Assembly (NCBI GenBank): GCA_017620205.1
Contig: JAFZQX010000003.1
Span: 3,713-67,712 of the forward strand
Reading direction: 5' to 3'
Length of the DNA: 64,000 bases
DNA from: Clostridia bacterium
GTDB lineage: Bacteria; Bacillota; Clostridia; UMGS1883; UMGS1540
Under the pieces are notes generated by a model. That model did not search any database, had not been told where the DNA came from, and saw only the letters and a program-made list of their open reading frames with translations. Both the position numbers and the translations under genes were made by a program. Positions 1-52,619 of this stretch are shown one piece after another; positions within the stretch are counted from its first letter, which is position 1; each line of letters begins with the position of its first letter.

Positions 1-695
1 TTATTTGGACACTTGCTACAGCAAAGCTGAATATCATAAATCCCGCCCTTTTTCCGCCTCCCGGAAAGGTATTCAAACAGCTTATCGAGGATAACAAAAA
101 AATATTTGTTAATATCATAAGCTCGCTCGGAATTATTTTGCAGGGCTATTTGCTCGGAGCTGTTGTTGCAATACCTCTCGGTCTGTTTCTCGGCTGCAGC
201 GCAAGGCTGGGTAGTGCCGCCACGTATATTTCAAAATTTTTCGGCGCAATTCCGCCTATTGTATATATCCCTTACGGAATAGCGCTGCTTCCGACATTCA
301 GATCGGTATCGGTATTTGTAATTTTTCTGGCGACATTCTGGCCGGTTCTTGCCGGAACCATGAGCGGAGTTATGAATGTAGATAAAAAAACGATTGATTC
401 CGCAAAGGTGCTTAATGTAAACAAGCTTTCCATGTTGTTTTCGGTTATCCTTCCCGCGTCCTTGCCTGAGATTTTTATAGGCTGCAATCAGGGTTTAACG
501 GTTTCGTTTATCCTTCTTACATCTGCGGAAATGATAGGCGCGCGCAGCGGTTTGGGATATTATATCAAGAACTATTCGGACTTCGGTGATTATACAAGAA
601 CACTTGTGGGACTTATTGTAATAGGCGTTGTGATTGTATTTATTTCGTTCCTTTTCAATAAGCTGCAGAAATATCTTTTAAGATGGAAATACTGA
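1..695 (+). CDS. ABC transporter permease, 5' partial (NitT/TauT SsuC-like binding-protein-dependent inner membrane component)
   Basis: ORF is open to the window start in the frame of the 138..695 ORF. Multi-TM protein with a permease signature. 11-nt gap to the next gene. Confidence 0.7.
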   Translation, partial: IWTLATAKLNIINPALFPPPGKVFKQLIEDNKKIFVNIISSLGIILQGYLLGAVVAIPLGLFLGCSARLGSAATYISKFFGAIPPIVYIPYGIALLPTFRSVSVFVIFLATFWPVLAGTMSGVMNVDKKTIDSAKVLNVNKLSMLFSVILPASLPEIFIGCNQGLTVSFILLTSAEMIGARSGLGYYIKNYSDFGDYTRTLVGLIVIGVVIVFISFLFNKLQKYLLRWKY

Positions 696-7784: not shown

Positions 7785-8939
7785 TTATAAACGCTTTTTA
7801 ATTTGAGTTATTGCTTTTTCCAATACGCTTTTCGGACAGGCAATATTCATGCGCATAAACCCGTTTCCGCCTTCTCCGAAAATAAAACCGCTGCTCATCC
7901 AAACGCCGCAGTCACGTATGAAGAATTCTTCAAGTTCACGGGAGTTTAAGCCGAGTTTCCGGCAATCAAGCCACATTAAATATGTGCCTTCCGGCGCTAT
8001 GGGTTTGATTTTTGTGTTTTCAAAGCTCTCTATTACGTAATCCGCGTTGCTTTTCAGATATTTCAGTAATTGCTGCAGCCACTCTTCGCCATGCCTATAT
8101 GCCGCTTTTGCGGCTGCCGCGGACATTATGCCCATTTCGCCCGCACAAGTTGACAGTATTTCTCTCTCTGTTTTATTGCGGATATCCGTGTTTGCTATTA
8201 TTAAATTGGCGCCTTTTATTCCCGCAAGATTAAATGTTTTTGTAACAGAAGTTACAGCTACCGTTATATCTGCCGCTTCTTTTGACAATGACGCTGCCGG
8301 GAAATGATTTTTAAACACCAGATCCGAATGGATTTCGTCGGAAACTATTATGACATTATGCCTCTTGCAAATGTTAACTACATTGCAAAGCTCTTCTTTG
8401 TCCCATACTCTGCTTACGGGATTGTGAGGAGAACAAAAAAGAAGAAGTTTTACGTTTTCTTCAACTATTCTGTTCTCAAGGTCATTAAAATCAATATAAT
8501 ACTTCTGCCCGTCAAAATTTAATACGCTTACAACGGGTCGCCTTTTAAGGGATTTTATAATGTTTAAAAAGGGGTGATATACCGGCTGCATAATAAGAAC
8601 GGAATCACCGGCTTTTGACAGAGCTCTGATTGCTGCCGATATCCCAAACAAAACGCCCTCACAGGGGACAATCCAATCTCGCTTTATATCAAAACCAAAC
8701 CGTTTTTTGTTCCATTTAATCAAAAGATCATAGTATTCATCGTCAAGCTCCGTGTAGCCGAATATGCCGCATTCAGAAGCAGACTGCAGGGCGTCTGTTA
8801 TTTCGGGCGCTGTCTTAAAATCCATATCCGCCACCCACATTGGAATAACATCGCTTACATCGGGATAACGGGGATGCTTCTTATACTTTATTGAATTTGT
8901 GTTTTTACGGTTATAGACCGTGTCAAAATCATATTTCAT
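7785..8939 (-). CDS. patB: PLP-dependent C-S lyase, MalY/PatB family (cystathionine beta-lyase/cysteine desulfhydrase-like)
   Basis: MKYDFDTVYNRKNTNSIKY... N-terminus characteristic of PatB/MalY. Start chosen at the internal ATG that abuts the tcdA stop. Confidence 0.8.
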   Translation of the reverse strand: MKYDFDTVYNRKNTNSIKYKKHPRYPDVSDVIPMWVADMDFKTAPEITDALQSASECGIFGYTELDDEYYDLLIKWNKKRFGFDIKRDWIVPCEGVLFGISAAIRALSKAGDSVLIMQPVYHPFLNIIKSLKRRPVVSVLNFDGQKYYIDFNDLENRIVEENVKLLLFCSPHNPVSRVWDKEELCNVVNICKRHNVIIVSDEIHSDLVFKNHFPAASLSKEAADITVAVTSVTKTFNLAGIKGANLIIANTDIRNKTEREILSTCAGEMGIMSAAAAKAAYRHGEEWLQQLLKYLKSNADYVIESFENTKIKPIAPEGTYLMWLDCRKLGLNSRELEEFFIRDCGVWMSSGFIFGEGGNGFMRMNIACPKSVLEKAITQIKKRL

Positions 8940-9688
8940 TTTATTAAATCTTTTATTACCTCTCCCGCTATTATAAGCCCCGCAACGCTCGGCACAAAAG
9001 CGTTGCTGCCCGGAACCTGATTGCGTACCGTACACGTTCTTTTTGTGTCAGGCGGACAAATGCAGTGGTGCTTACATGAATTATCGTCACTTTCAATCGG
9101 CGTTAAGGGAGACTCTTTTGAATAAACACATTTGAGCTTTTTTATTCCTCTTTTTCTGCACTCATAGCGCATAACTTTAGCAAGCGGACAAACAGAAGTT
9201 TTGTAAATATCCGCAACTTCAAATTTTGTGGGATCGAGTTTGTTGCCCGCGCCCATGCAAGAAATAATGGGAGTTTTGGTATCCGCCGCATTTTGAACTA
9301 AGGCTATCTTGCCTGTTACGGTATCAATAGCGTCTACAACATAATCGTAAAGTGAAAAATCAAACTCCGCGGCGGTTTCGGGCGTGTAAAAGGTTTTGTA
9401 GGTGCTTATTTTTATCCCGGGATTTATCTCCGCGATTCTTTCTGCGGCCACATCTACCTTGTATTTGCCGACAGTTTTTCTTGTCGCGTAAATTTGTCTG
9501 TTGATATTTGTCAGGCATATTTTGTCGTCATCTATTATATCTATGGCGCCTATACCGGAGAGGGCAAGCGCTTCCACGGTAAAGCCGCCTACACCGCCTA
9601 TCCCAAACACGGCAACGCGGGAGACCCAAAGCTTTTGCATTGCGTCTTTGCCTAAAATAAGCTCTGTTCTTGAATATTGATTCAACAT
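8936..9688 (-). CDS. tcdA: tRNA threonylcarbamoyladenosine dehydratase TcdA/CsdL (ThiF/MoeB E1-like)
   Basis: VAVFGIGGVGG...EALALSGIGAIDIIDDDKICLTNINRQ closely parallels E. coli TcdA. Confidence 0.85.
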   Translation of the reverse strand: MLNQYSRTELILGKDAMQKLWVSRVAVFGIGGVGGFTVEALALSGIGAIDIIDDDKICLTNINRQIYATRKTVGKYKVDVAAERIAEINPGIKISTYKTFYTPETAAEFDFSLYDYVVDAIDTVTGKIALVQNAADTKTPIISCMGAGNKLDPTKFEVADIYKTSVCPLAKVMRYECRKRGIKKLKCVYSKESPLTPIESDDNSCKHHCICPPDTKRTCTVRNQVPGSNAFVPSVAGLIIAGEVIKDLIK

Positions 9689-9700
9689 AAAATGTACTCC

Positions 9701-10276
9701 TTAAAGGATGTTTTCATAAATACTTTCACAGCTTCTCATTGCTAAAATTGTTTTGGAAATCAAATCGTCCAAAGACCATCCGAGCATTTCGGCGCCGCGC
9801 TCTATGACTTCTCTTGAACAGCCGGCGGCAAAATTTGAGTTTTTATACTTTTTCTTAACTGATTTGAGTTCAAGATCCGAAACGCTTTTTGAAGGTCGCA
9901 TAAGGGCAACAGCTCCGATAAGACCGGTAAGCTCATCTGCGGCATATAATACTTTTTCCATTTCGTGTTCAGGCTCTATATCAACCGTTATGGCGTAGCC
10001 GTGGCTTGCGGTTGCGTGAATCAATCTTTCGTCAAGCCCAAGCTCGCGCATTATTTCCTGTTCCTTTATACAGTGCTGAGTGGGAAACTGCTCAAAATCA
10101 AGGTCGTGAAGAAGACCTACTATACCCCAGAAATCTGCTTCATCACCGTATCCGAGCTCTCCTGCAAAATAGCGCATTACGCCTTCAACAATAACTGCGT
10201 GCTTTAAATGAAAATTGTCTTTATTATATTCACAAAGCAAATTCCACGCCGCATCTCTTGAAATCTCTTTATTCAT
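9701..10276 (-). CDS. HD-domain phosphohydrolase (HDIG-type)
   Basis: An H...HD...D metal-ligand pattern. The start was moved to the internal ATG with an RBS. Confidence 0.6.
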   Translation of the reverse strand: MNKEISRDAAWNLLCEYNKDNFHLKHAVIVEGVMRYFAGELGYGDEADFWGIVGLLHDLDFEQFPTQHCIKEQEIMRELGLDERLIHATASHGYAITVDIEPEHEMEKVLYAADELTGLIGAVALMRPSKSVSDLELKSVKKKYKNSNFAAGCSREVIERGAEMLGWSLDDLISKTILAMRSCESIYENIL

Positions 10277-10475
10277 CGTCTGACCCTCTTTCTTATCAAA
10301 CGGCAGTAAATACCTACTAATTTTATATATTATATACTTTTTTGCTATTAAAGTCAATCGTTTTGGGCCAGAAAGGCAGGCGCATAATATCTTTTGTTTA
10401 TATATAAAAGCTATAGCAAAGGAATAAACTATACATTTCTATAGCATTCAGGTATAGCTGCGCCAAAAAAATAGT

Positions 10476-10506
10476 ATTGACATATAATAAAAACGGTGTT
10501 ATAATA
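10476..10506 (+). promoter_or_regulatory. sigma-A promoter (TTGACA-17-TATAAT)
   Basis: Exact consensus -35 and -10 hexamers with a 17-nt spacer, about 55 nt upstream of the leader ORF. Confidence 0.8.
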
Positions 10507-10532
10507 CCTATAAAACACGTAGGATTTATAGG
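10507..10532. promoter_or_regulatory. perfect 8-bp inverted repeat CCTATAAA-N10-TTTATAGG at the transcription start
   Basis: Palindrome immediately after the -10 element. Possible operator or 5' hairpin. Confidence 0.45.
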
Positions 10533-10559
10533 ATATAAACTGCTGAAAGGAAATATATC

Positions 10560-10649
10560 ATGAAAAACATTAATAAATCACGTCAGATGAATAATTGTTT
10601 CTGTTGCTGTATTTTATGTGTCCGCATAGGCGATACGGTCTGTTTGTGA
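10560..10649 (+). CDS. Cys-rich leader peptide MKNINKSRQMNNCFCCCILCVRIGDTVCL (putative attenuator)
   Basis: RBS AAAGGA lies 9 nt upstream. 6 of 29 codons are Cys. The stop is 21 nt before an intrinsic terminator. Sits ahead of the Met-to-Cys operon. Not in the ORF track (below 60 aa). Confidence 0.55.
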   Translation: MKNINKSRQMNNCFCCCILCVRIGDTVCL

Positions 10650-10670
10650 TTGCTTTTTTTAAAGTATAAC

Positions 10671-10711
10671 GGCTCCGTCTATGTGTATAAAAGCAGGCGG
10701 AGCCTTTTTAT
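10671..10711 (+). terminator. intrinsic terminator/attenuator (GGCTCCGTCT...AGGCGGAGCC + TTTTTAT)
   Basis: 10-bp stem with one G-U wobble, a 14-nt loop and a U-tract, located in the 5' leader 27 nt upstream of the first structural gene. Confidence 0.65.
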
Positions 10712-10737
10712 ATATCATAAAGAAATGAGGATAGCTT

Positions 10738-11652
10738 ATGACATTATACAGGGAAAGCGTAACGGCAAAAATATGTGCTTTTTCAAGAGCGCATCACTCA
10801 ATGCGGAAAAGCTCAAAAATATTTGATGACAACCTCGCATTTGATATTCTGGGTAAAAAAGAATATGAAAGAATAGGACAGATGATAGAGAACGGATTTA
10901 AAAATCGTGAATATAATCCATTAAGCGCTTTCAACAAGCAATTTGTTTCGGAAGAAATAGAAAAATATATTTCTCCCATAACGCTTTCAAGAGCCGCTTT
11001 TGCGGAAGAAAGTCTTCTGCAGTTTGCCGAAAAGAAAGGCGCCTGTCAGTATGTTATTTGCGGTGCGGGAATGGATACGTTTCCATTTCGCAACGAAAAC
11101 AGGAATATAAAAATATTTGAACTTGATTATCCCGATACGCAGGAGTATAAACTGAAAAAAATCAATGAGCTTAAATGGGATATCCCGTCTGATGTTTACT
11201 ATGTGCCGATAGACTTTTCGAAGGACGATATGAGTATAAAGTTAAAAGAAGCCGGATTTTCAAAAGATATACCGACATTTTTTTCAATACTCGGAGTAAC
11301 ATATTATCTTACGCTTTCGGTTTTTACAAAGACGCTTGAGATGATAAATGAAATATCGTCTCCCGAAAGCGAAATAGTTTTTGATTATCCCGATGAAACA
11401 ACATTTGCCGGCAAAGACAATGAAAGGGTATTGCGTCTTCGCCAGATAGCGTCGGGACTCGGCGAGATAATGAAACAGGGCTTTAGCCTGAATGAAATTG
11501 AAGAAGCGCTCAAAAAAAGCGGTTTTGGAATAAAAAAGCATCTGCCGCCCGGGGAGATACAAAAAACACTTCGCGGGCGCGGCTACAGCCAACAGGCGTT
11601 TGAAAACATCCATTTAATCAAAGCGGTAAAAGGAAAGGAATTTAAAATATGA
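10738..11652 (+). CDS. class I SAM-dependent methyltransferase (TIGR00027/LCM-like O-methyltransferase family)
   Basis: Rossmann SAM-binding core (VICGAGMDT). First gene of the operon, overlapping metK by 4 nt. Confidence 0.65.
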
Positions 11653-12824
11653 GCAGTTTTATTTTTACATCGGAATCGGTAACAAGCGGTCATCCCGATA
11701 AAGTCAGCGATATAATTTCCGATTCAATTCTCGATGCGTATCTTGAAAAGGATCCTCATGCGAGAGTTGCGGTTGAAACAGTGGTAAAAAACAACACCGT
11801 GATTTTAGCGGGTGAAATATCGTCAAATGCAAAAACGGATATTGAAAATACAGTGCGGAAAGCGATAAATGAAATAGGATATAACAGAGGGGAACTCGGT
11901 TTCAGCGGCGATACGGCTGAAATAATAATTCGCATAGACAAACAGTCTCCCGATATAGCACAGGGAGTAGACAGCGCACTTGAAAGCCAAAGCGAAATAG
12001 GTGCGGGTGATCAGGGAATGGTTTTCGGATATGCGTCGGATGAAACGGAGGAGCTTATGCCTTTGCCCATATCCCTTGCGCATAAGCTTGCAAAAAAGCT
12101 TCAGGAAGTCCGTGAAAACGGCACTCTCCCGTATCTCCGCCCAGACGGAAAAACCCAGGTTTCGATCAAATATGAAAACGGCGTACCGGCAGGAATTGAC
12201 ACCGTTTTAGTATCCGCACAGCATGATGAAGACATAACGCAGGAACAAATCCGGAAAGATATAACAGAATATGTTATCAAACCCGTTATACCCGGGGAGT
12301 TTCTTGATATTACAACAAAAATACTTGTAAATCCTACGGGCAGGTTCGTAATAGGAGGCCCTGTGGGCGACAGCGGTCTTACAGGGCGCAAGATTATTGT
12401 AGATACATACGGAGGCGCCGCAAGACACGGCGGCGGTGCGTTTTCCGGGAAAGACCCGACAAAGGTTGACAGAAGCGCGGCATACGCGGCAAGATATGCT
12501 GCAAAAAATATAGTTGCGGCGAAGCTTGCAAAGAAAGCGGAGATACAAATCGCGTATGCAATAGGCGTTGCAAATCCCGTTTCGGTAAGCGTTGATACTT
12601 TCGGAACGGGCGTTGTTGCAGATGACAAGCTGCACGCGGCAATACTTGAAGTGTTTGATTTCAGACCCAAAGCAATCATAAAAGAGCTGGAGCTTCAAAA
12701 ACCGGTATATAAAGAAACCGCAGCTTACGGTCATTTCGGACGGGACGAATCTTTGTTTAATTGGGAAAAAACAGATAAAGCAGCACTGCTTATCGGATAT
12801 TTAAGAGAGCGTGGAGAAATATGA
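11649..12824 (+). CDS. metK: S-adenosylmethionine synthetase
   Basis: Canonical GHPDK motif and GGGAFSGKD motif. Confidence 0.95.
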
Positions 12825-13282
12825 AAACTATTGCGAGCTTTACAGTAAACCACGATAAACTGCAGAAGGGCATTTACATTTCAAGAAAAGACGGGGATGT
12901 TATTACATACGACATAAGAATGAAAAAGCCAAACGGCGGCGACTATCTTTCAAATGAAACTATTCATACAATAGAACATCTTTTTGCAACGTATGTGAGA
13001 AACGGAGCTTTTTCCGAAAGCGTAATATATGTCGGCCCTATGGGCTGCCGTACAGGGTTTTACTTTATCCTTAGAGATAAAGTGTCTCATGCCGAAGTGA
13101 TTTCACTTACAAAAGAAGTTTTTGCTTTTATCGCAAACTTTGAAGGCGCGATACCGGGAACAAGACGCATAGAGTGCGGCAATTACCTGGAACACAACCT
13201 TAAGGACGCAAAAAAAGAAGCAAGGGGAATGGGCAAAGTTTTATCGGACTGGACAGAGGAACAAATGTATTATGAAAACTAA
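12821..13282 (+). CDS. luxS: S-ribosylhomocysteine lyase
   Basis: HTIEH motif and the conserved C of the LuxS family. Confidence 0.9.
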
Positions 13283-13997
13283 TAAACTGATAGGCGTTAT
13301 AGGCGCAATGGAAAGCGAAACTGAAAAGATTAAAACATTGCTTACGGAAAAGCGTCTGTTTACCGAAAGCGGAATAGAATTTGTCAGGGGACGGCTGCAC
13401 GGGCAAGATGTTATTGTTGCCAAAAGCGGTATCGGAAAAGTAAACGCCGCAATATGTACGCAGATTATGATAGATAAGTTCTCTGTTGACTCAATAATCA
13501 ATACAGGCGTCGCGGGGGCAATTGACAAACGGCTGAGCGTGGGTGATCTGATAATCGGAACAACGCTTGTCCAGCATGATTTTGACGTAACTGCGTTCGG
13601 GTATTCCAAAGGATATATGTGTACGGGGAAAAACCCAAACGAGCCGACAAAGTATCATTCGGATAAACGCCTTGTAAATAAAATTTTCCGCGCGGCAAAA
13701 ACAAACTTAAAGGACAAAAGAATAATAACGGGCATCATAGCTTCCGGAGATGTGTTTGTTTCATCTTCCGAAGATAAAGAAATGTTAAAAGAGGTTTTTA
13801 ACGCGTCGGCAGTTGAAATGGAAGGCGCCGCAATTGCGCAAACGGCGGCGGCAGTTAGCGTTCCGTTTGCCGTTATAAGAACCGTGTCGGATAATGCGGA
13901 CGGAGAAGCAGAAAAATCTTTTGATATATTTGAAAAAGAAGCAGCCGAGCAGTCGGCATATGTAATAAATAAATTTATTGAATCGGAGGCAATCTGA
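13272..13997 (+). CDS. mtnN: 5'-methylthioadenosine/S-adenosylhomocysteine nucleosidase
   Basis: IGAMESE motif. Full-length Pfs/MtnN. Confidence 0.9.
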   Translation: MKTNKLIGVIGAMESETEKIKTLLTEKRLFTESGIEFVRGRLHGQDVIVAKSGIGKVNAAICTQIMIDKFSVDSIINTGVAGAIDKRLSVGDLIIGTTLVQHDFDVTAFGYSKGYMCTGKNPNEPTKYHSDKRLVNKIFRAAKTNLKDKRIITGIIASGDVFVSSSEDKEMLKEVFNASAVEMEGAAIAQTAAAVSVPFAVIRTVSDNADGEAEKSFDIFEKEAAEQSAYVINKFIESEAI

Positions 13998-13998
13998 A

Positions 13999-15159
13999 AT
14001 GAAAAGTTATAAAGAGATAGAATCCGCGCTTATACACGGCGGGATTTACGGTGATAAACAAACGGGAGCTGTAAATGTTCCTATTTACCAGACATCAACG
14101 TATGAGCAGGAAGCTCTCGGCAAGCATAAGGGCTATGAATATTCCCGCACGGGAAATCCTACCAGAGCAGCTCTTGAAGCGCTTATAGCCGAGCTTGAAG
14201 AAGGTACGGACGGCTTTGCGTTTGCGTCGGGAATGGCGGCTATCACGGCGGTGCTGAGCCTTTTTAAAACCGGAGACAAAATTATTATTTCAAGCAATGT
14301 ATATGGCGGCACCTTCCGCGTGCTTGACAAAGTCTTTACAAACTTTGGCATAGCATATTCCATAGAAGATACAACAGATATTGACGCCTTGGATAAAAAA
14401 ATAACTGACGATGTTAGGGCGGTTTTAATAGAAAGTCCGGCAAACCCGCTTTTGTCGGTTACCGATTTGTCCGCAGTTGCCGCGCTTGCCAAAAAACACG
14501 GAATTCTTACGATAGTAGATAATACTTTTATGACGCCGTATTTGCAAAAGCCCCTAAAACTCGGCGCCGATATTGTTTTGCACAGCGCAACGAAATACCT
14601 CGGCGGTCACAGCGACCTTGTAGCGGGACTTGTTGCGGTAAATTCCAAAGCGCTTGCAGAGCGTCTTGCGTTTATACAAAATGCGACAGGCGGTGTTTTG
14701 CAGCCGTTTGATTCTTTTTTACTTATACGCGGCATCAAAACTCTCGGAGTCAGAATGGACAGACATGTTGAAAATGCAGAAAAAGCGGCAGAGTTTTTAA
14801 GAAACCATAAAGCGGTCAAAAAAGTGTATTATCCGGGTTTTGAAGACGCCAAAGGTTATGAAATAAACAAAAAACAGGCAAAAAACGGCGGAGCTATGAT
14901 TTCCTTTGAGCTTTACGAAAACTACAATGCAGAAAAATTCTTCTCATCATTAAAGCTTATCGCGCTTGCCGAAAGTTTGGGCGGCGTAGAATCGCTTGTA
15001 TGCCACCCCGCCAGCATGACGCACGCCTCAATTCCGTATGAGACGCGCCAAAAGGTGGGGATTACGGACGGTCTTATTAGGCTGTCGATAGGTATAGAGC
15101 ATATAGATGATATTTTAAATGATTTAGAGCAGGCCATAACGGAAAGTGAGGTAAAATAA
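13999..15159 (+). CDS. mccB: Cys/Met-metabolism PLP enzyme (cystathionine gamma-lyase/homocysteine gamma-lyase, MccB/MetC-like)
   Basis: MetB/MetC/MccB family motifs including the PLP lysine region. Start at the internal ATG just after the mtnN stop. Confidence 0.8.
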   Translation: MKSYKEIESALIHGGIYGDKQTGAVNVPIYQTSTYEQEALGKHKGYEYSRTGNPTRAALEALIAELEEGTDGFAFASGMAAITAVLSLFKTGDKIIISSNVYGGTFRVLDKVFTNFGIAYSIEDTTDIDALDKKITDDVRAVLIESPANPLLSVTDLSAVAALAKKHGILTIVDNTFMTPYLQKPLKLGADIVLHSATKYLGGHSDLVAGLVAVNSKALAERLAFIQNATGGVLQPFDSFLLIRGIKTLGVRMDRHVENAEKAAEFLRNHKAVKKVYYPGFEDAKGYEINKKQAKNGGAMISFELYENYNAEKFFSSLKLIALAESLGGVESLVCHPASMTHASIPYETRQKVGITDGLIRLSIGIEHIDDILNDLEQAITESEVK

Positions 15160-16070
15160 TGAGTTATTATGAATCCATGCAGGATCTTATAGGAAACACC
15201 CCCATTGTAAAACTAAAGCACATTCCTTTGCCGGACGGTGTAAACCTTTTTGCCAAATTAGAGCTTTATAACCCTGCCGGCAGCGTTAAGGACAGGGTTG
15301 GAAAATATATGATAGAGCGTGCCGAAAAAGAGGGAAAGCTGAAACCCGGCGGAACTATTGTGGAAGGTACGGCAGGCAATACGGGACTTGGCATAGCTTT
15401 TGCGGCGCTTAACCGCAATTACCGCGTTATCTTTGCCGTGCCGACAAAATTCTCCGAAGAAAAGCAGACGCTTATGCGTGCGCTCGGAGCCGAAATTATA
15501 AATACACCGCGCGAAGACGGTATGCTCGGCGCTTCAAAAAAGGCTGAGGAGCTTAGAGAAGAAATACCCGGCGCCGTTTCTTTAAAGCAATTTGAAAATC
15601 CTGCAAATCCCCTTGCACATTATGAAACAACCGGACCCGAGATCTGGCGCGATTTAAGCGGAAAAATAGACTATCTGGTTGCAGGTGCGGGCAGCGGCGG
15701 TACATATTCGGGCGCGCTGCGTTATCTTAAGGAGCAAAACCCCGCTATAAAGGGAATACTTGCAGACCCCGTAGGCTCAACAATGGGCGGAGGCGAGCAC
15801 GGCGATTATAACATAGAGGGCATCGGAAACGACTTTATAGCAAAGACAATGGATATGTCACTTGTTGACGATGTTATAAAAATAAATGACGAGGAAGCGT
15901 TTTCTGGCGCCCGTATGCTGGCGCTCAGAGAAGGTATAATAGCGGGCTCGTCGTCCGGGGCGGCGCTTGCGGCAGCACAAAAGCTTGCAAAGAGCGGTGT
16001 TAAGGGAAATATTGTTATAGTTCTTCCCGACAGGGGCGACAGATATTTCAGTAAGAATTTATATTTATAA
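15159..16070 (+). CDS. mccA: cysteine synthase family (OAS-dependent cystathionine beta-synthase MccA-like / CysK)
   Basis: Canonical PLP-lysine motif (GSVKDR) of the cysteine synthase family. Operon context suggests reverse transsulfuration. Confidence 0.8.
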   Translation: MSYYESMQDLIGNTPIVKLKHIPLPDGVNLFAKLELYNPAGSVKDRVGKYMIERAEKEGKLKPGGTIVEGTAGNTGLGIAFAALNRNYRVIFAVPTKFSEEKQTLMRALGAEIINTPREDGMLGASKKAEELREEIPGAVSLKQFENPANPLAHYETTGPEIWRDLSGKIDYLVAGAGSGGTYSGALRYLKEQNPAIKGILADPVGSTMGGGEHGDYNIEGIGNDFIAKTMDMSLVDDVIKINDEEAFSGARMLALREGIIAGSSSGAALAAAQKLAKSGVKGNIVIVLPDRGDRYFSKNLYL

Positions 16071-16101
16071 AATTAAAAAATGCGAAAGCCGGGTGGAGTT
16101 T

Positions 16102-16539
16102 TTGAGAATATCAACAAAAGGGCGGTATGCTTTACGCGTGCTCGTATATCTTGCGGAGAATTTAAACGGTAACTATATCGCGTTAAAGGAAATAGCAAAA
16201 AGCCAACACATATCAAAAAAATACTTGGAACAAATCGTTCCCGTTTTAACGAGAAACGGACTGCTGCAGGTAAACCGCGGCTTTCAGGGGGGATACCGGC
16301 TCAGCCGTAACCCCGATAAATTTACAGTCGGCTCTGTACTGAGAATGACGGAGGGAAGCCTGTCTTCCGAGGGAAATAATGAAAGCGGTTTTGCAAACAG
16401 CGAATACGATGAAGACGGCGAAATACTCTTTGTATGGCAGGGACTTAATAAAACAATAAACACTTATCTTGACAGTATAACAATTCAAGATATTATAGAC
16501 AACAAACAGGATGAATATGTAAATGATTATGTAATTTGA
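16102..16539 (+). CDS. cymR: Rrf2 family transcriptional regulator (CymR/IscR-like)
   Basis: MRISTKGRYALRVL N-terminal HTH of the Rrf2 family. TTG start with a GGTGGAG RBS. Confidence 0.75.
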   Translation: MRISTKGRYALRVLVYLAENLNGNYIALKEIAKSQHISKKYLEQIVPVLTRNGLLQVNRGFQGGYRLSRNPDKFTVGSVLRMTEGSLSSEGNNESGFANSEYDEDGEILFVWQGLNKTINTYLDSITIQDIIDNKQDEYVNDYVI

Positions 16540-16578
16540 TGTTTGAAGCGAAAGTCTTTAAACAGGAGGAAAAAACAA

Positions 16579-17508
16579 ATGACACTGCAGCAAATATTTT
16601 ATGCGCTTACAATATCTGAAACAGGTTCGATGAACAAAGCGGCTGAGGTTTTGTTTATATCACAGCCGTCTTTGACAAACGCGATAAAAGAGCTTGAAAA
16701 AGACGTTGGTATAACCATATTTTCAAGAACGGGCAGAGGCGCCGTGCCTACAAAAGACGGAGAAGAATTTCTCCTATATGCCCGTCAGGTTTATCAGCAA
16801 TACGAGCTTTTACAGCAAAAGTATGGGGAAAAAGGAAACGTTAAACGGAAGTTCGGAGTTTCCTCACAGCACTATTCCTTTGCCGTTAAAGCGTTTGTGG
16901 AAACCGTTAAAAAGCTTGATTCAAGAAAATACGAATTTGCAATACGAGAAGAAAAAACTCATGTGGTAATTCAGGATGTCGGAAATCTCAGGAGCGAAAT
17001 AGGCATTATATATTTAAGCGATTTTAACCGTAAGGTAATAGAAAAAATGCTGAAAGAATATGAGCTTGAATTTCAAAAGCTGATAGAATGCAACGCTTAT
17101 GTATACCTATGGAAAAATCATCCTCTTGCAAAAGAGAAGTCAATCAGTTTTGAACAGCTGAGACAATACCCCTGCCTGTCTTTTGAGCAGGGCGAAAAGG
17201 GCTCCTTCTATTTTGCAGAGGAAATATTAAGCGATAGCGACTATGCGCAGACTATAAAGACATGCGACAGAGCAACCATGCTCAATTTAATGGTAGGGCT
17301 AAACGGATACACGCTTTGCTCGGGAATTATATGCGGTGAACTAAACGGAAGCGACTATGTAGTTGTTCCGTTTGAAGATGATGCAGTTAACCATAACAGC
17401 ATTTTAGAGATAGGATATATTATAAAAAAGCATGGCATCTTAAGCTCTGCCGGTGAAATCTACATCAAAGAAGTACAAAAATATTTGAAAGAGCAGTCGG
17501 ATATTTAA
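16579..17508 (+). CDS. LysR family transcriptional regulator
   Basis: N-terminal HTH with a LysR substrate-binding domain. AGGAGG RBS. Confidence 0.8.
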   Translation: MTLQQIFYALTISETGSMNKAAEVLFISQPSLTNAIKELEKDVGITIFSRTGRGAVPTKDGEEFLLYARQVYQQYELLQQKYGEKGNVKRKFGVSSQHYSFAVKAFVETVKKLDSRKYEFAIREEKTHVVIQDVGNLRSEIGIIYLSDFNRKVIEKMLKEYELEFQKLIECNAYVYLWKNHPLAKEKSISFEQLRQYPCLSFEQGEKGSFYFAEEILSDSDYAQTIKTCDRATMLNLMVGLNGYTLCSGIICGELNGSDYVVVPFEDDAVNHNSILEIGYIIKKHGILSSAGEIYIKEVQKYLKEQSDI

Positions 17509-52472: not shown

Positions 52473-52619
52473 CTAATTCTTATGACACTCTCCACACATG
52501 GGGCATGAGCCGCAGGAGCAACCGCAGGATGATTTACCTTGCTTTTTGTTTTTCACCATTTTAAATATTATGCCTGCGACTATGGCAATAAGGATAATGC
52601 TTATTATAACATTCGCCAT
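52473..52619 (-). CDS. FeoB-associated Cys-rich small membrane protein (48 aa) MANVIISIILIAIVAGIIFKMVKNKKQGKSSCGCSCGSCPMCGECHKN
   Basis: Starts 3 nt after the feoB stop. One TM segment then a CGCSCGSC..C..C tail. Absent from the ORF track (below 60 aa). Confidence 0.65.
   Translation of the reverse strand: MANVIISIILIAIVAGIIFKMVKNKKQGKSSCGCSCGSCPMCGECHKN

Follow-up and report, generated by a model that had tools for sequence, protein, structure and literature searches.

We analysed a 64,000-nucleotide (nt) stretch of a contig from a Clostridia bacterium (JAFZQX010000003.1; the whole stretch is referred to as the window) and describe here the leader of an operon that converts methionine to cysteine (Met-to-Cys operon). 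This leader is most probably a ribosome-mediated transcription attenuator of the classical four-region type, which senses charged tRNA-Cys and controls the Met-to-Cys operon. At the level of sequence, it contains what defines this class of attenuators: an open reading frame (ORF) led by a Shine-Dalgarno (SD) sequence, a cluster of Cys codons, an intrinsic terminator formed by regions 3 and 4 (3:4), an antiterminator formed by regions 2 and 3 (2:3), and an anti-antiterminator (1:2) that holds the regulatory codons. The data presented below directly show the parts of the leader, the pairings that exclude one another, how these are conserved and covary, the frame of the Cys codons, and the geometry of the leader. 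A four-part leader like that of the window is shared by 73 of 80 orthologous loci.

Anatomy of the leader in the window

The original prediction, made from the letters of the window, had placed a consensus promoter, an SD sequence, a 29-codon ORF with six Cys codons, and a terminator 21 nt past the stop codon in front of the operon, and each of these is present where it had been placed. The leader is composed of the following features (window coordinates).

10477..10505, + strand: promoter of the Sigma-70/SigA type, with -35 box TTGACA (10477-10482), 17-nt spacer, and TG-extended -10 box TATAAT (10500-10505)
10546..10553, + strand: SD-like sequence AAAGGAAA of the leader ORF, recognised from sequence, ending 6 nt before the ATG
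10560..10649, + strand: leader ORF of 29 codons plus stop (MKNINKSRQMNNCFCCCILCVRIGDTVCL), with the ATG at 10560
10596-98, 10602-04, 10605-07, 10608-10, 10617-19, and 10641-43, + strand: Cys codons of the leader ORF, from the translation
10602..10619, + strand: region 1, the 5' strand of the anti-antiterminator, in which UGUUGCU (10602-10608) and UAUGU (10615-10619) pair with region 2
10623..10635, + strand: region 2, of which 10623-10632 (CGCAUAGGCG) is the 5' strand of the antiterminator, and 10624-10635 alternatively pairs with region 1
10676..10685, + strand: region 3 (CGUCUAUGUG), the antiterminator partner of region 2, sharing sequence with the 5' arm of the terminator
10671..10709, + strand: intrinsic terminator, with 5' arm 10671-10680, 14-nt loop, 3' arm (region 4) 10695-10704, and U-run 10705-10709

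The promoter matches the consensus at 12 of 12 positions and is the top-scoring promoter-like site within 9600-17500; equivalent promoters are seen in related loci that have no cysK gene upstream (see below). The leader ORF starts approximately 50 nt past the predicted transcription start. Its six Cys residues are specified by codons 13, 15, 16, 17, 20, and 28, so that five fall within eight codons. The terminator stem is a G+C-rich helix of 10 bp between GGCUCCGUCU (10671-10680) and AGGCGGAGCC (10695-10704), followed by UUUUU, with a predicted energy of -17.6 kcal/mol.

The leader is conserved across Clostridia

The first structural gene of the operon encodes a methyltransferase with approximately 1,500 relatives in the protein collection. 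The closest of these are 52% to 59% identical, and the sole named match among them is from Anaerosporobacter (Clostridia). A profile-guided scan for this methyltransferase, with one genome per GTDB species, gave 80 orthologous loci that span Ruminococcus, Oscillospiraceae, Lachnospiraceae, Christensenellales, Acutalibacteraceae, Anaerotignum, Ruminiclostridium sufflavum, Eubacterium oxidoreducens, and Bianquea renquensis. A small ORF with a run of Cys codons, typically CC(C)[LMI]CC(C), precedes the methyltransferase gene on the same strand, within a few hundred nt, in 71 of the 80 loci. The 350 nt in front of a neighbouring cysK paralogue served as a control and hold such an ORF in just 5 of 51 loci. 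A Cys leader for the neighbouring cysK was rejected, being missing in 46 of the 51 loci.

We built a covariance model (CM R1) from the leaders, which finds exactly one copy in 73 of the 80 loci, always just upstream of the methyltransferase gene. Carriers that can be cultured include Anaerotignum propionicum (L038), Eubacterium oxidoreducens DSM 3217 (L009), Ruminiclostridium sufflavum (L047), Bianquea renquensis (L015), and Ruminococcus sp. YE282 (L042). In the window, its single match (10596-10710) scores 53.2 bits (E = 3e-14), with the runner-up at 13 bits, and no second copy was found in the window or in any of the 80 loci. Leaderless exceptions are L021, L024, L036, L057, and L080, where the methyltransferase gene comes directly after a cysK-like gene. 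L074 includes hardly any upstream sequence, in L014 the promoter is present without a leader, and L053 carries a reduced form. Since our scan of all small ORFs in the 64-kb window shows that Cys-rich ones occur elsewhere in it, Cys richness alone is not decisive there. As judged from sequence comparison, it is the conservation across loci that we take as the decisive evidence against chance.

Some further observations were made on the distribution of Cys leaders. L035, L036, and L060 carry labels of metagenome-assembled genomes from outside the Clostridia (Enterobacterales, Succinivibrio, Alphaproteobacteria), which may be due to mis-binning or horizontal transfer; weak Cys leaders are present in L035 (27 bits) and L060 (34 bits). 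A metagenome scan for other genes under the leader, with the pattern ACAGGCGG..CCGYCTG..CAGGCGG, was too unspecific, returning the real element in 2 of 80 fetched loci. Additional tiny polyCys upstream ORFs are seen in L002 (-113..-47 from cysK), L031 (-109..-73 from cysK), L056 (approximately 270 nt before the methyltransferase gene), and L053, with the sequences ...RRCCC-stop, MKFQYLLRCCC-stop, MYPKRCCAV-stop, and MMIQKRCYPCV.... They are akin to the Cys short ORFs of mycobacteria and may represent a second, simpler type of Cys sensor.

Alternative pairings of the leader RNA

The leaders have three conserved blocks: (GAC)ACAGGCGG(C), a few codons past the Cys run (region 2); CCGCCUGU or CCGUCUGU (region 3); and ACAGGCGG, followed by the U-run (region 4). 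Regions 2 and 4 are near-identical and both are complementary to region 3, which is the signature of an antiterminator/terminator pair. Pairings were counted in 69 leaders aligned with MAFFT, without fitting the alignment to any structure, and 500 column shuffles and slid registers served as controls. For the family terminator, 87.7% of cells are paired, with changes on both sides in 9 of 11 pairs, compared to 40% to 48% paired in slid registers. The observed values were reached by 0 of 500 shuffles on four of five measures, and by 20 of 500 on further pair types. RNAalifold independently gives the same terminator helix. The 2:3 helix of the family behaves similarly, with 88.8% of cells paired, changes on both sides in 8 of 9 pairs, 0 of 500 shuffles reaching the observed value, and 32% to 52% paired in slid registers.

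For the window, no antiterminator had been assignable by eye, and it was found by comparison: 10623-10632 (CGCAUAGGCG) pairs with 10676-10685 (CGUCUAUGUG) in a 10-bp helix, and the 2..3 segment has an energy of -17.9 kcal/mol, comparable to the terminator. Region 2 of the window aligns with the family block at columns 43-51 of alignment A2, and a U-A pair at columns 44/166 replaces the C-G pair of the family, i.e., a compensatory change. Folding 10507-10737 as a single sequence, which had been proposed as a way to find exclusive structures, is uninformative on this point (z = -1.55 for the minimum free energy).

The Cys codons are themselves complementary to region 2, with GCUGCUGUxUGUGUUGU facing GACACAGGCGGC (UGY against RCA and GCU against GGC). 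In folds of the individual leaders compared to shuffles, the resulting 1:2 hairpin has a mean energy of -13.7 kcal/mol and a mean z of -2.6, with z < -1 in 86% of leaders. The window copy pairs 10602-10608 with 10629-10635 and 10615-10619 with 10624-10628, at -6.5 to -7.1 kcal/mol and z = -0.8. Taken over approximately 70 leaders, the conserved, covarying 2:3, 3:4, and Cys-codon 1:2 pairings support the idea, put forward in the original prediction, of trp/his-type attenuation with Cys as the sensed amino acid.

We also folded the 69 leaders with a masked 28-nt ribosome footprint, centred on the second or third Cys codon, and with the RNA cut just before region 4. Under these constraints, the 2:3 helix is predicted in 94% (second Cys codon) and 93% (third Cys codon) of the leaders, the window included. 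Without a footprint and at full length, 91% of the leaders fold into the terminator and 88% show the 1:2 hairpin. Each leader has 3 to 7 Cys codons (mean 4.8) ahead of region 2. The distance to region 2 is 21 to 30 nt from the start of the first Cys codon and, in 45 of 69 leaders, 9 nt from the start of the last one that precedes it. Given this tight spacing, a ribosome stalled early in the run would leave region 2 just clear.

The window also contains a local hairpin at 10624-10660 (-6.8 kcal/mol) that includes 3' sequence of region 2, with U7 (10654-10660) behind it, immediately past the stop codon of the leader ORF. In this copy of the leader, the hairpin is in competition with the 2:3 helix, and it could be a pause or weak termination signal. 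We rejected a candidate long-range helix that would join the part coding for the N terminus to the stretch directly preceding the terminator (mean z 0.17).

The small ORF as a probable translated sensor

An ATG-started ORF extends through the Cys run in the Cys frame in 70 of the 71 leaders, preceded by an SD-like sequence in 64; the other two frames have ATG-started ORFs in 25 and 2 leaders, none of them with an SD. Ahead of the start codon that we chose for each leader, an SD-like sequence is present in 68 of 71. What is conserved in relatives is therefore the small ORF with its Cys run, and not a riboswitch or T-box. Loss of the ORF alongside a preserved RNA structure had been named as an outcome that would refute the original prediction, and the comparison favours the prediction instead. 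We found no relevant Rfam match at the gathering score in the whole window or in 10 related loci. For 10300-10800, searching at E up to 10 likewise gave nothing relevant (neither the T-box, RF00230, nor an S-box or other riboswitch), and no S-box antisense unit was found in the window.

Since the Cys codons are complementary to region 2, the UGY run could be explained by structure alone. This would allow a trans factor (protein, tRNA, or metabolite) to sense the conserved RNA, with the ORF as a by-product of UGY-rich pairing sequence, and Firmicutes usually employ T-boxes, riboswitches, or RNA-binding proteins for such a task (PMC2566862, PMC2940859). However, the Rfam searches described above provide no candidate, and the restriction of SD-ATG ORFs to the one frame that reads UGY as Cys (64 of 71 leaders, versus 0 and 0) is difficult to reconcile with a by-product. 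Moreover, the leader is short (approximately 115 to 190 nt from Cys run to U-run) and has no conserved structured domain beyond simple hairpins, with RNAalifold predicting only the terminator. We therefore consider sensing by a trans factor very unlikely.

A different explanation sees the small ORF as the gene of a functional Cys-rich micropeptide, which might bind metal or sulfur or be a precursor resembling those of ribosomally synthesised and post-translationally modified peptides (RiPP-like); the hairpin would then be a leaky terminator or a processing signal. The conserved SD and ATG ORF and the recurrence of the short motifs 'DTGG' and 'AE..FGG' are in line with this, as are the trans functions of some attenuator leader peptides elsewhere (peTrpL, PMC7298713). 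In addition, a genuine Cys-rich small protein is present in the same window (52473-52619, - strand): this ORF of 48 aa begins with a hydrophobic helix, ends in a Cys-rich tail (CGCSCGSCPMCGEC), matches PF12669 with 53.6 bits and, going by its sequence, is a real FeoB-associated Cys-rich membrane protein and not a leader.

Outside the Cys run, however, the leader peptides vary freely in length (21 to 57 residues) and sequence (mean column identity 24% in alignment A3), and only the Cys columns are nearly invariant. The 'DTGG' motif corresponds to ACAGGCGG, which persists even where it falls 3' of the stop codon (L004, L013, L017) or out of frame (L034), and the 'AE....FGG' motif corresponds to an RNA hairpin inside the ORF, GCCGAA-N-UUCGGC (P0), of which the inner pairs covary. 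The conserved nucleotides pair and covary with the terminator arm. By these comparisons, the constraint downstream of the Cys run acts on the RNA and not on the peptide, which favours a sensor ORF over a functional micropeptide. When a profile of 43 leader peptides was searched against 5.8 billion proteins, 11 matches were obtained, of which eight are (nearly) identical to leaders of the present set and P0124, P0125, and P0129 only resemble them; no larger protein family was found in this search. That the peptide might be a true product, as had been considered, is thus disfavoured, and we regard a functional micropeptide as extremely unlikely.

P0 is present in at least 26 of the 71 leaders (including L001, L002, L003, L010, L017, L040, L045, L072, and L073), approximately 50 to 19 nt before the first Cys codon, and is missing in the window and in short leaders. 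A role as a pause signal is a possibility.

Proposed mechanism and its strength

In the proposed attenuation mechanism, transcription would begin at the consensus promoter and a ribosome would translate the 29-codon leader. With plentiful Cys-tRNA, the ribosome would pass the Cys codons and region 2, and regions 1 and 2 would re-pair behind it; the free region 3 would pair with region 4 to form the terminator, stopping transcription at approximately 10705-10712, before the methyltransferase gene. With scarce Cys-tRNA, the ribosome would stall on the first Cys codons in region 1, holding 1:2 open and leaving region 2 clear. Region 2 would then capture region 3 once this is transcribed, no terminator would form, and the Met-to-Cys operon would be transcribed.

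A number of points weigh against this mechanism. We infer every functional step from sequence: that ribosomes stall, that they stay near enough to RNA polymerase, and that the operon responds to cysteine in vivo. With a stalled ribosome, the full-length RNA still has the terminator as its thermodynamic optimum, which requires a kinetic switch. In 57% of leaders, 2:3 is favoured over 1:2 at equilibrium if the RNA is untranslated and ends before region 4, so that termination without translation is not guaranteed. The position of the stop codon is variable and lies beyond region 2 in most leaders, where a ribosome at the stop codon would not cover region 2, and the ORF of L056 extends through the terminator. 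The window copy itself is a weak member of the family (53 bits, with a 1:2 hairpin of only approximately -7 kcal/mol and z = -0.8). A NusG-type TTNTTT pause motif is not enriched between regions 2 and 3 (26% of leaders, versus 16% expected). Finally, the model needs a ribosome close behind RNA polymerase, and Bacillota are placed among the bacteria with 'runaway' transcription, where RNA polymerase runs ahead of the ribosomes (PMC13323073). Nevertheless, antibiotic-sensing leaders of Bacillus subtilis use ribosome-mediated transcription attenuation, aided by NusG-dependent pausing (PMC4191407, PMC6851288), suggesting that the requirement for closeness is not implausible.

Stalling at the Cys codons could also act by another route, such as Rho-dependent termination, mRNA stability, or translational coupling as in mycobacteria, where polyCys small ORFs work by unmasking a downstream ribosome-binding site (bioRxiv 10.1101/834739). 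Actinobacterial Cys leaders occur without terminators (PMC1262725) and, within the present family, L037 is without a good U-run. By contrast, a hairpin with a U/T-run is found 20 to 60 nt before the methyltransferase start in approximately 70 of the 71 leaders, and the terminator 5' arm shows compensatory changes both with its own 3' arm and with region 2. The SD of the methyltransferase gene in the window (UGAGGA, 10726-10731) is outside the terminator and antiterminator helices. Taken together, another route appears quite unlikely, and transcription attenuation via a 3:4 terminator is the reading that we prefer.

The regulated operon and its neighbourhood

The operon downstream of the leader had been predicted to make cysteine from methionine, and this is borne out by its six genes.

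10738-11652, + strand: LCM-type (PF04072) S-adenosylmethionine (SAM) methyltransferase, first structural gene, with the ATG at 10738
11649-12824, + strand: metK, encoding MetK
12821-13282, + strand: luxS, encoding LuxS
13272-13997, + strand: mtnN, encoding the methylthioadenosine (MTA)/S-adenosylhomocysteine (SAH) nucleosidase MtnN
13978-15159, + strand: mccB-like gene, encoding an MccB-like cystathionine gamma-lyase
15159-16070, + strand: mccA-like gene, encoding an MccA-like CysK/CBS enzyme

These genes (10738..16070, + strand) overlap or almost abut, and together constitute the complete route from methionine via SAM, SAH, S-ribosylhomocysteine, homocysteine, and cystathionine to cysteine. 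The gene order 3' of the leader is conserved in related loci, with the methyltransferase gene followed by optional metK, luxS, mtnN, and then mccB and mccA. In approximately 50 loci (among L002-L079), a cysK paralogue whose product is 43% to 48% identical to MccA of the window is located directly upstream on the same strand, approximately 250 to 1200 nt upstream of the methyltransferase gene, and the leader occupies a gap of 190 to 340 nt. In those loci, the attenuator would therefore lie within a longer transcription unit, after cysK and ahead of the Met-to-Cys genes.

Three divergent genes are located upstream of the leader in the window (7785-10357, - strand), together with a minus-strand promoter-like site at 10357-10329.

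9701-10357, - strand: 218-aa ORF without a family match
8936-9688, - strand: TcdA/ThiF-family adenylyltransferase
7785-9035, - strand: PatB-type C-S lyase, a further sulfur amino-acid enzyme

A candidate second control layer

A palindrome directly 3' of the -10 box and the Rrf2-family gene that follows the operon suggest an additional level of control; a LysR-type gene comes next.

10507..10523, no strand assigned: palindrome CCTAT-N7-GTAGG (family CCTAY-N7-RTAGG), candidate repressor operator
16093..16539, + strand: Rrf2-family, CymR-like regulator (PF02082, 108 bits), 22 nt after mccA
16543-17508: LysR-type regulator, following the Rrf2 gene

The palindrome is the only exact match in the 64 kb and is part of an extended inverted repeat, with CCTATAAA at 10507-10514 and TTTATAGG at 10525-10532. 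It is found after the -10 box of a strong promoter upstream of the leader in approximately 16 loci and upstream of cysK in 45 of 52 loci, and in more than 60 loci (among L002-L079) overall. L014, which has no leader, has the palindrome too, and the palindrome is therefore independent of the attenuator. The CCTAY-N7-RTAGG consensus has no obvious match to the CymR box of B. subtilis.

For the Rrf2-family protein (16093-16539), the best specific model is NF047409 (CymR), with a score of 101 bits that is below the cut-off of 195. Orthologues with 45% to 55% identity adjoin the operon in at least 12 related loci. Judging from this co-location, the Rrf2 protein is a likely candidate for binding the promoter palindrome, and the overall design would likely pair repression at the initiation step with attenuation during elongation.

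Implications

Amino-acid leader-peptide attenuation is a textbook mechanism in Proteobacteria and is considered rare in Firmicutes, where T-boxes, riboswitches, and RNA-binding proteins dominate; this rarity has been attributed to RNA polymerase outrunning the ribosomes. If functional, the leader described here would be a missing regulator of cysteine and methionine salvage in abundant rumen and gut anaerobes, and a clean natural case in which a leader peptide replaces a T-box for the same operon and the same signal. It would also offer a simple genetic read-out of transcription-translation coupling in Clostridia. This would imply that, in a phylum generally classed as 'runaway', ribosomes keep near enough to RNA polymerase to permit trp-style attenuation, and the in-ORF hairpins P0 and 1:2 might help as pause signals. 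In practical terms, the small ORFs should be annotated as leader peptides rather than as hypothetical proteins, and the family could be a submission to Rfam. The promoter palindrome and the neighbouring Rrf2 gene constitute a candidate second sulfur-metabolism regulon.

Comparison with known systems

The original prediction named no Cys leader-peptide attenuator for this type of operon. We likewise found no description of a Cys leader-peptide terminator attenuator in Firmicutes/Clostridia, or before this operon, in the full-text literature; subscription journals are outside its coverage, so that a prior description there cannot be excluded. More widely, Cys leader peptides have precedents, being known in mycobacteria and predicted in Actinobacteria and Rhodobacterales. 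Rfam 15 has no family for the leader.

The closest mechanistic parallels are the enterobacterial trp, his, leu, thr, and pheA attenuators, which likewise have a short SD-led ORF with tandem codons for the pathway amino acid in region 1 and mutually exclusive 1:2, 2:3, and 3:4 helices, with 3:4 being an intrinsic terminator just upstream of the first structural gene. Here, by contrast, Cys is sensed, the hosts are Clostridia (Bacillota), and there is no sequence relationship. Unlike in trpL, the ORF usually runs past region 2, so that a terminating ribosome would not be on region 2. Moreover, the pathway is one of salvage and conversion rather than de novo synthesis, and most genomes have the element inside a transcription unit, with cysK before it and the methyltransferase gene after it.

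With regard to the genes controlled, the closest system is the Cys-specific T-box of ubiG-mccBA(-luxS) in Clostridium acetobutylicum and C. perfringens (PMC2566862, PMC2940859). Both systems involve a SAM methyltransferase, mccB, mccA, and luxS, a signal from tRNA-Cys charging, and a choice between terminator and antiterminator as output. In the leader described here, the sensor would be a ribosome translating Cys codons instead of binding of uncharged tRNA, and no T-box is detectable; in addition, the methyltransferase is LCM-type (PF04072), whereas that of the C. acetobutylicum operon is UbiG-type. The Met-to-Cys operon yrrT-mtnN-mccA-mccB of B. subtilis is repressed by the Rrf2 protein CymR (PMC2940859). 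The window has a CymR-like gene and a conserved promoter palindrome as well, but its protein scores below the NCBIfam CymR cut-off, and control by Rrf2 would be in addition to the attenuator.

Cys leaders without terminators have been predicted upstream of cys genes in Mycobacterium, Propionibacterium, and Bifidobacterium (PMC1262725), and the polyCys short ORFs of Mycobacterium smegmatis were shown to be leaderless translational attenuators of a 'Cys ribulon' (bioRxiv 10.1101/834739). The latter also have runs of Cys codons upstream of cysteine-metabolism genes, with stalling under Cys limitation turning the genes on. However, they are leaderless, unmask a downstream ribosome-binding site, and have no intrinsic terminator, whereas the clostridial leader has an SD and a terminator with U-run and is predicted to act on transcription. 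The uORFC-8-2 motif upstream of cysS in Rhodobacterales, a predicted terminator-type ribosome-mediated attenuator (PMC8632094), has Cys codons inside a stem and a terminator with U-run in common with the leader, but differs in having two Cys codons, in its gene (cysS), in its alpha-proteobacterial hosts, and in its structure, and the sequences are unrelated.

In Firmicutes, a His leader peptide upstream of hisS paralogues and hisZ in a few bacilli has been noted as the first 'regular' leader peptide (PMC2965389). It resembles the Cys leader in being a Firmicutes amino-acid leader-peptide attenuator in place of a T-box; the amino acid, the genes, and the clade are different, and the Cys leader extends over several orders of Clostridia.

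Compared to these systems, the leader is a new family of a well-known mechanism and not a new mechanism. On balance, we incline to the view that it represents a previously undescribed and widespread family of amino-acid-sensing, translation-coupled attenuators in the class Clostridia, which has replaced the Cys T-box before the Met-to-Cys operon.

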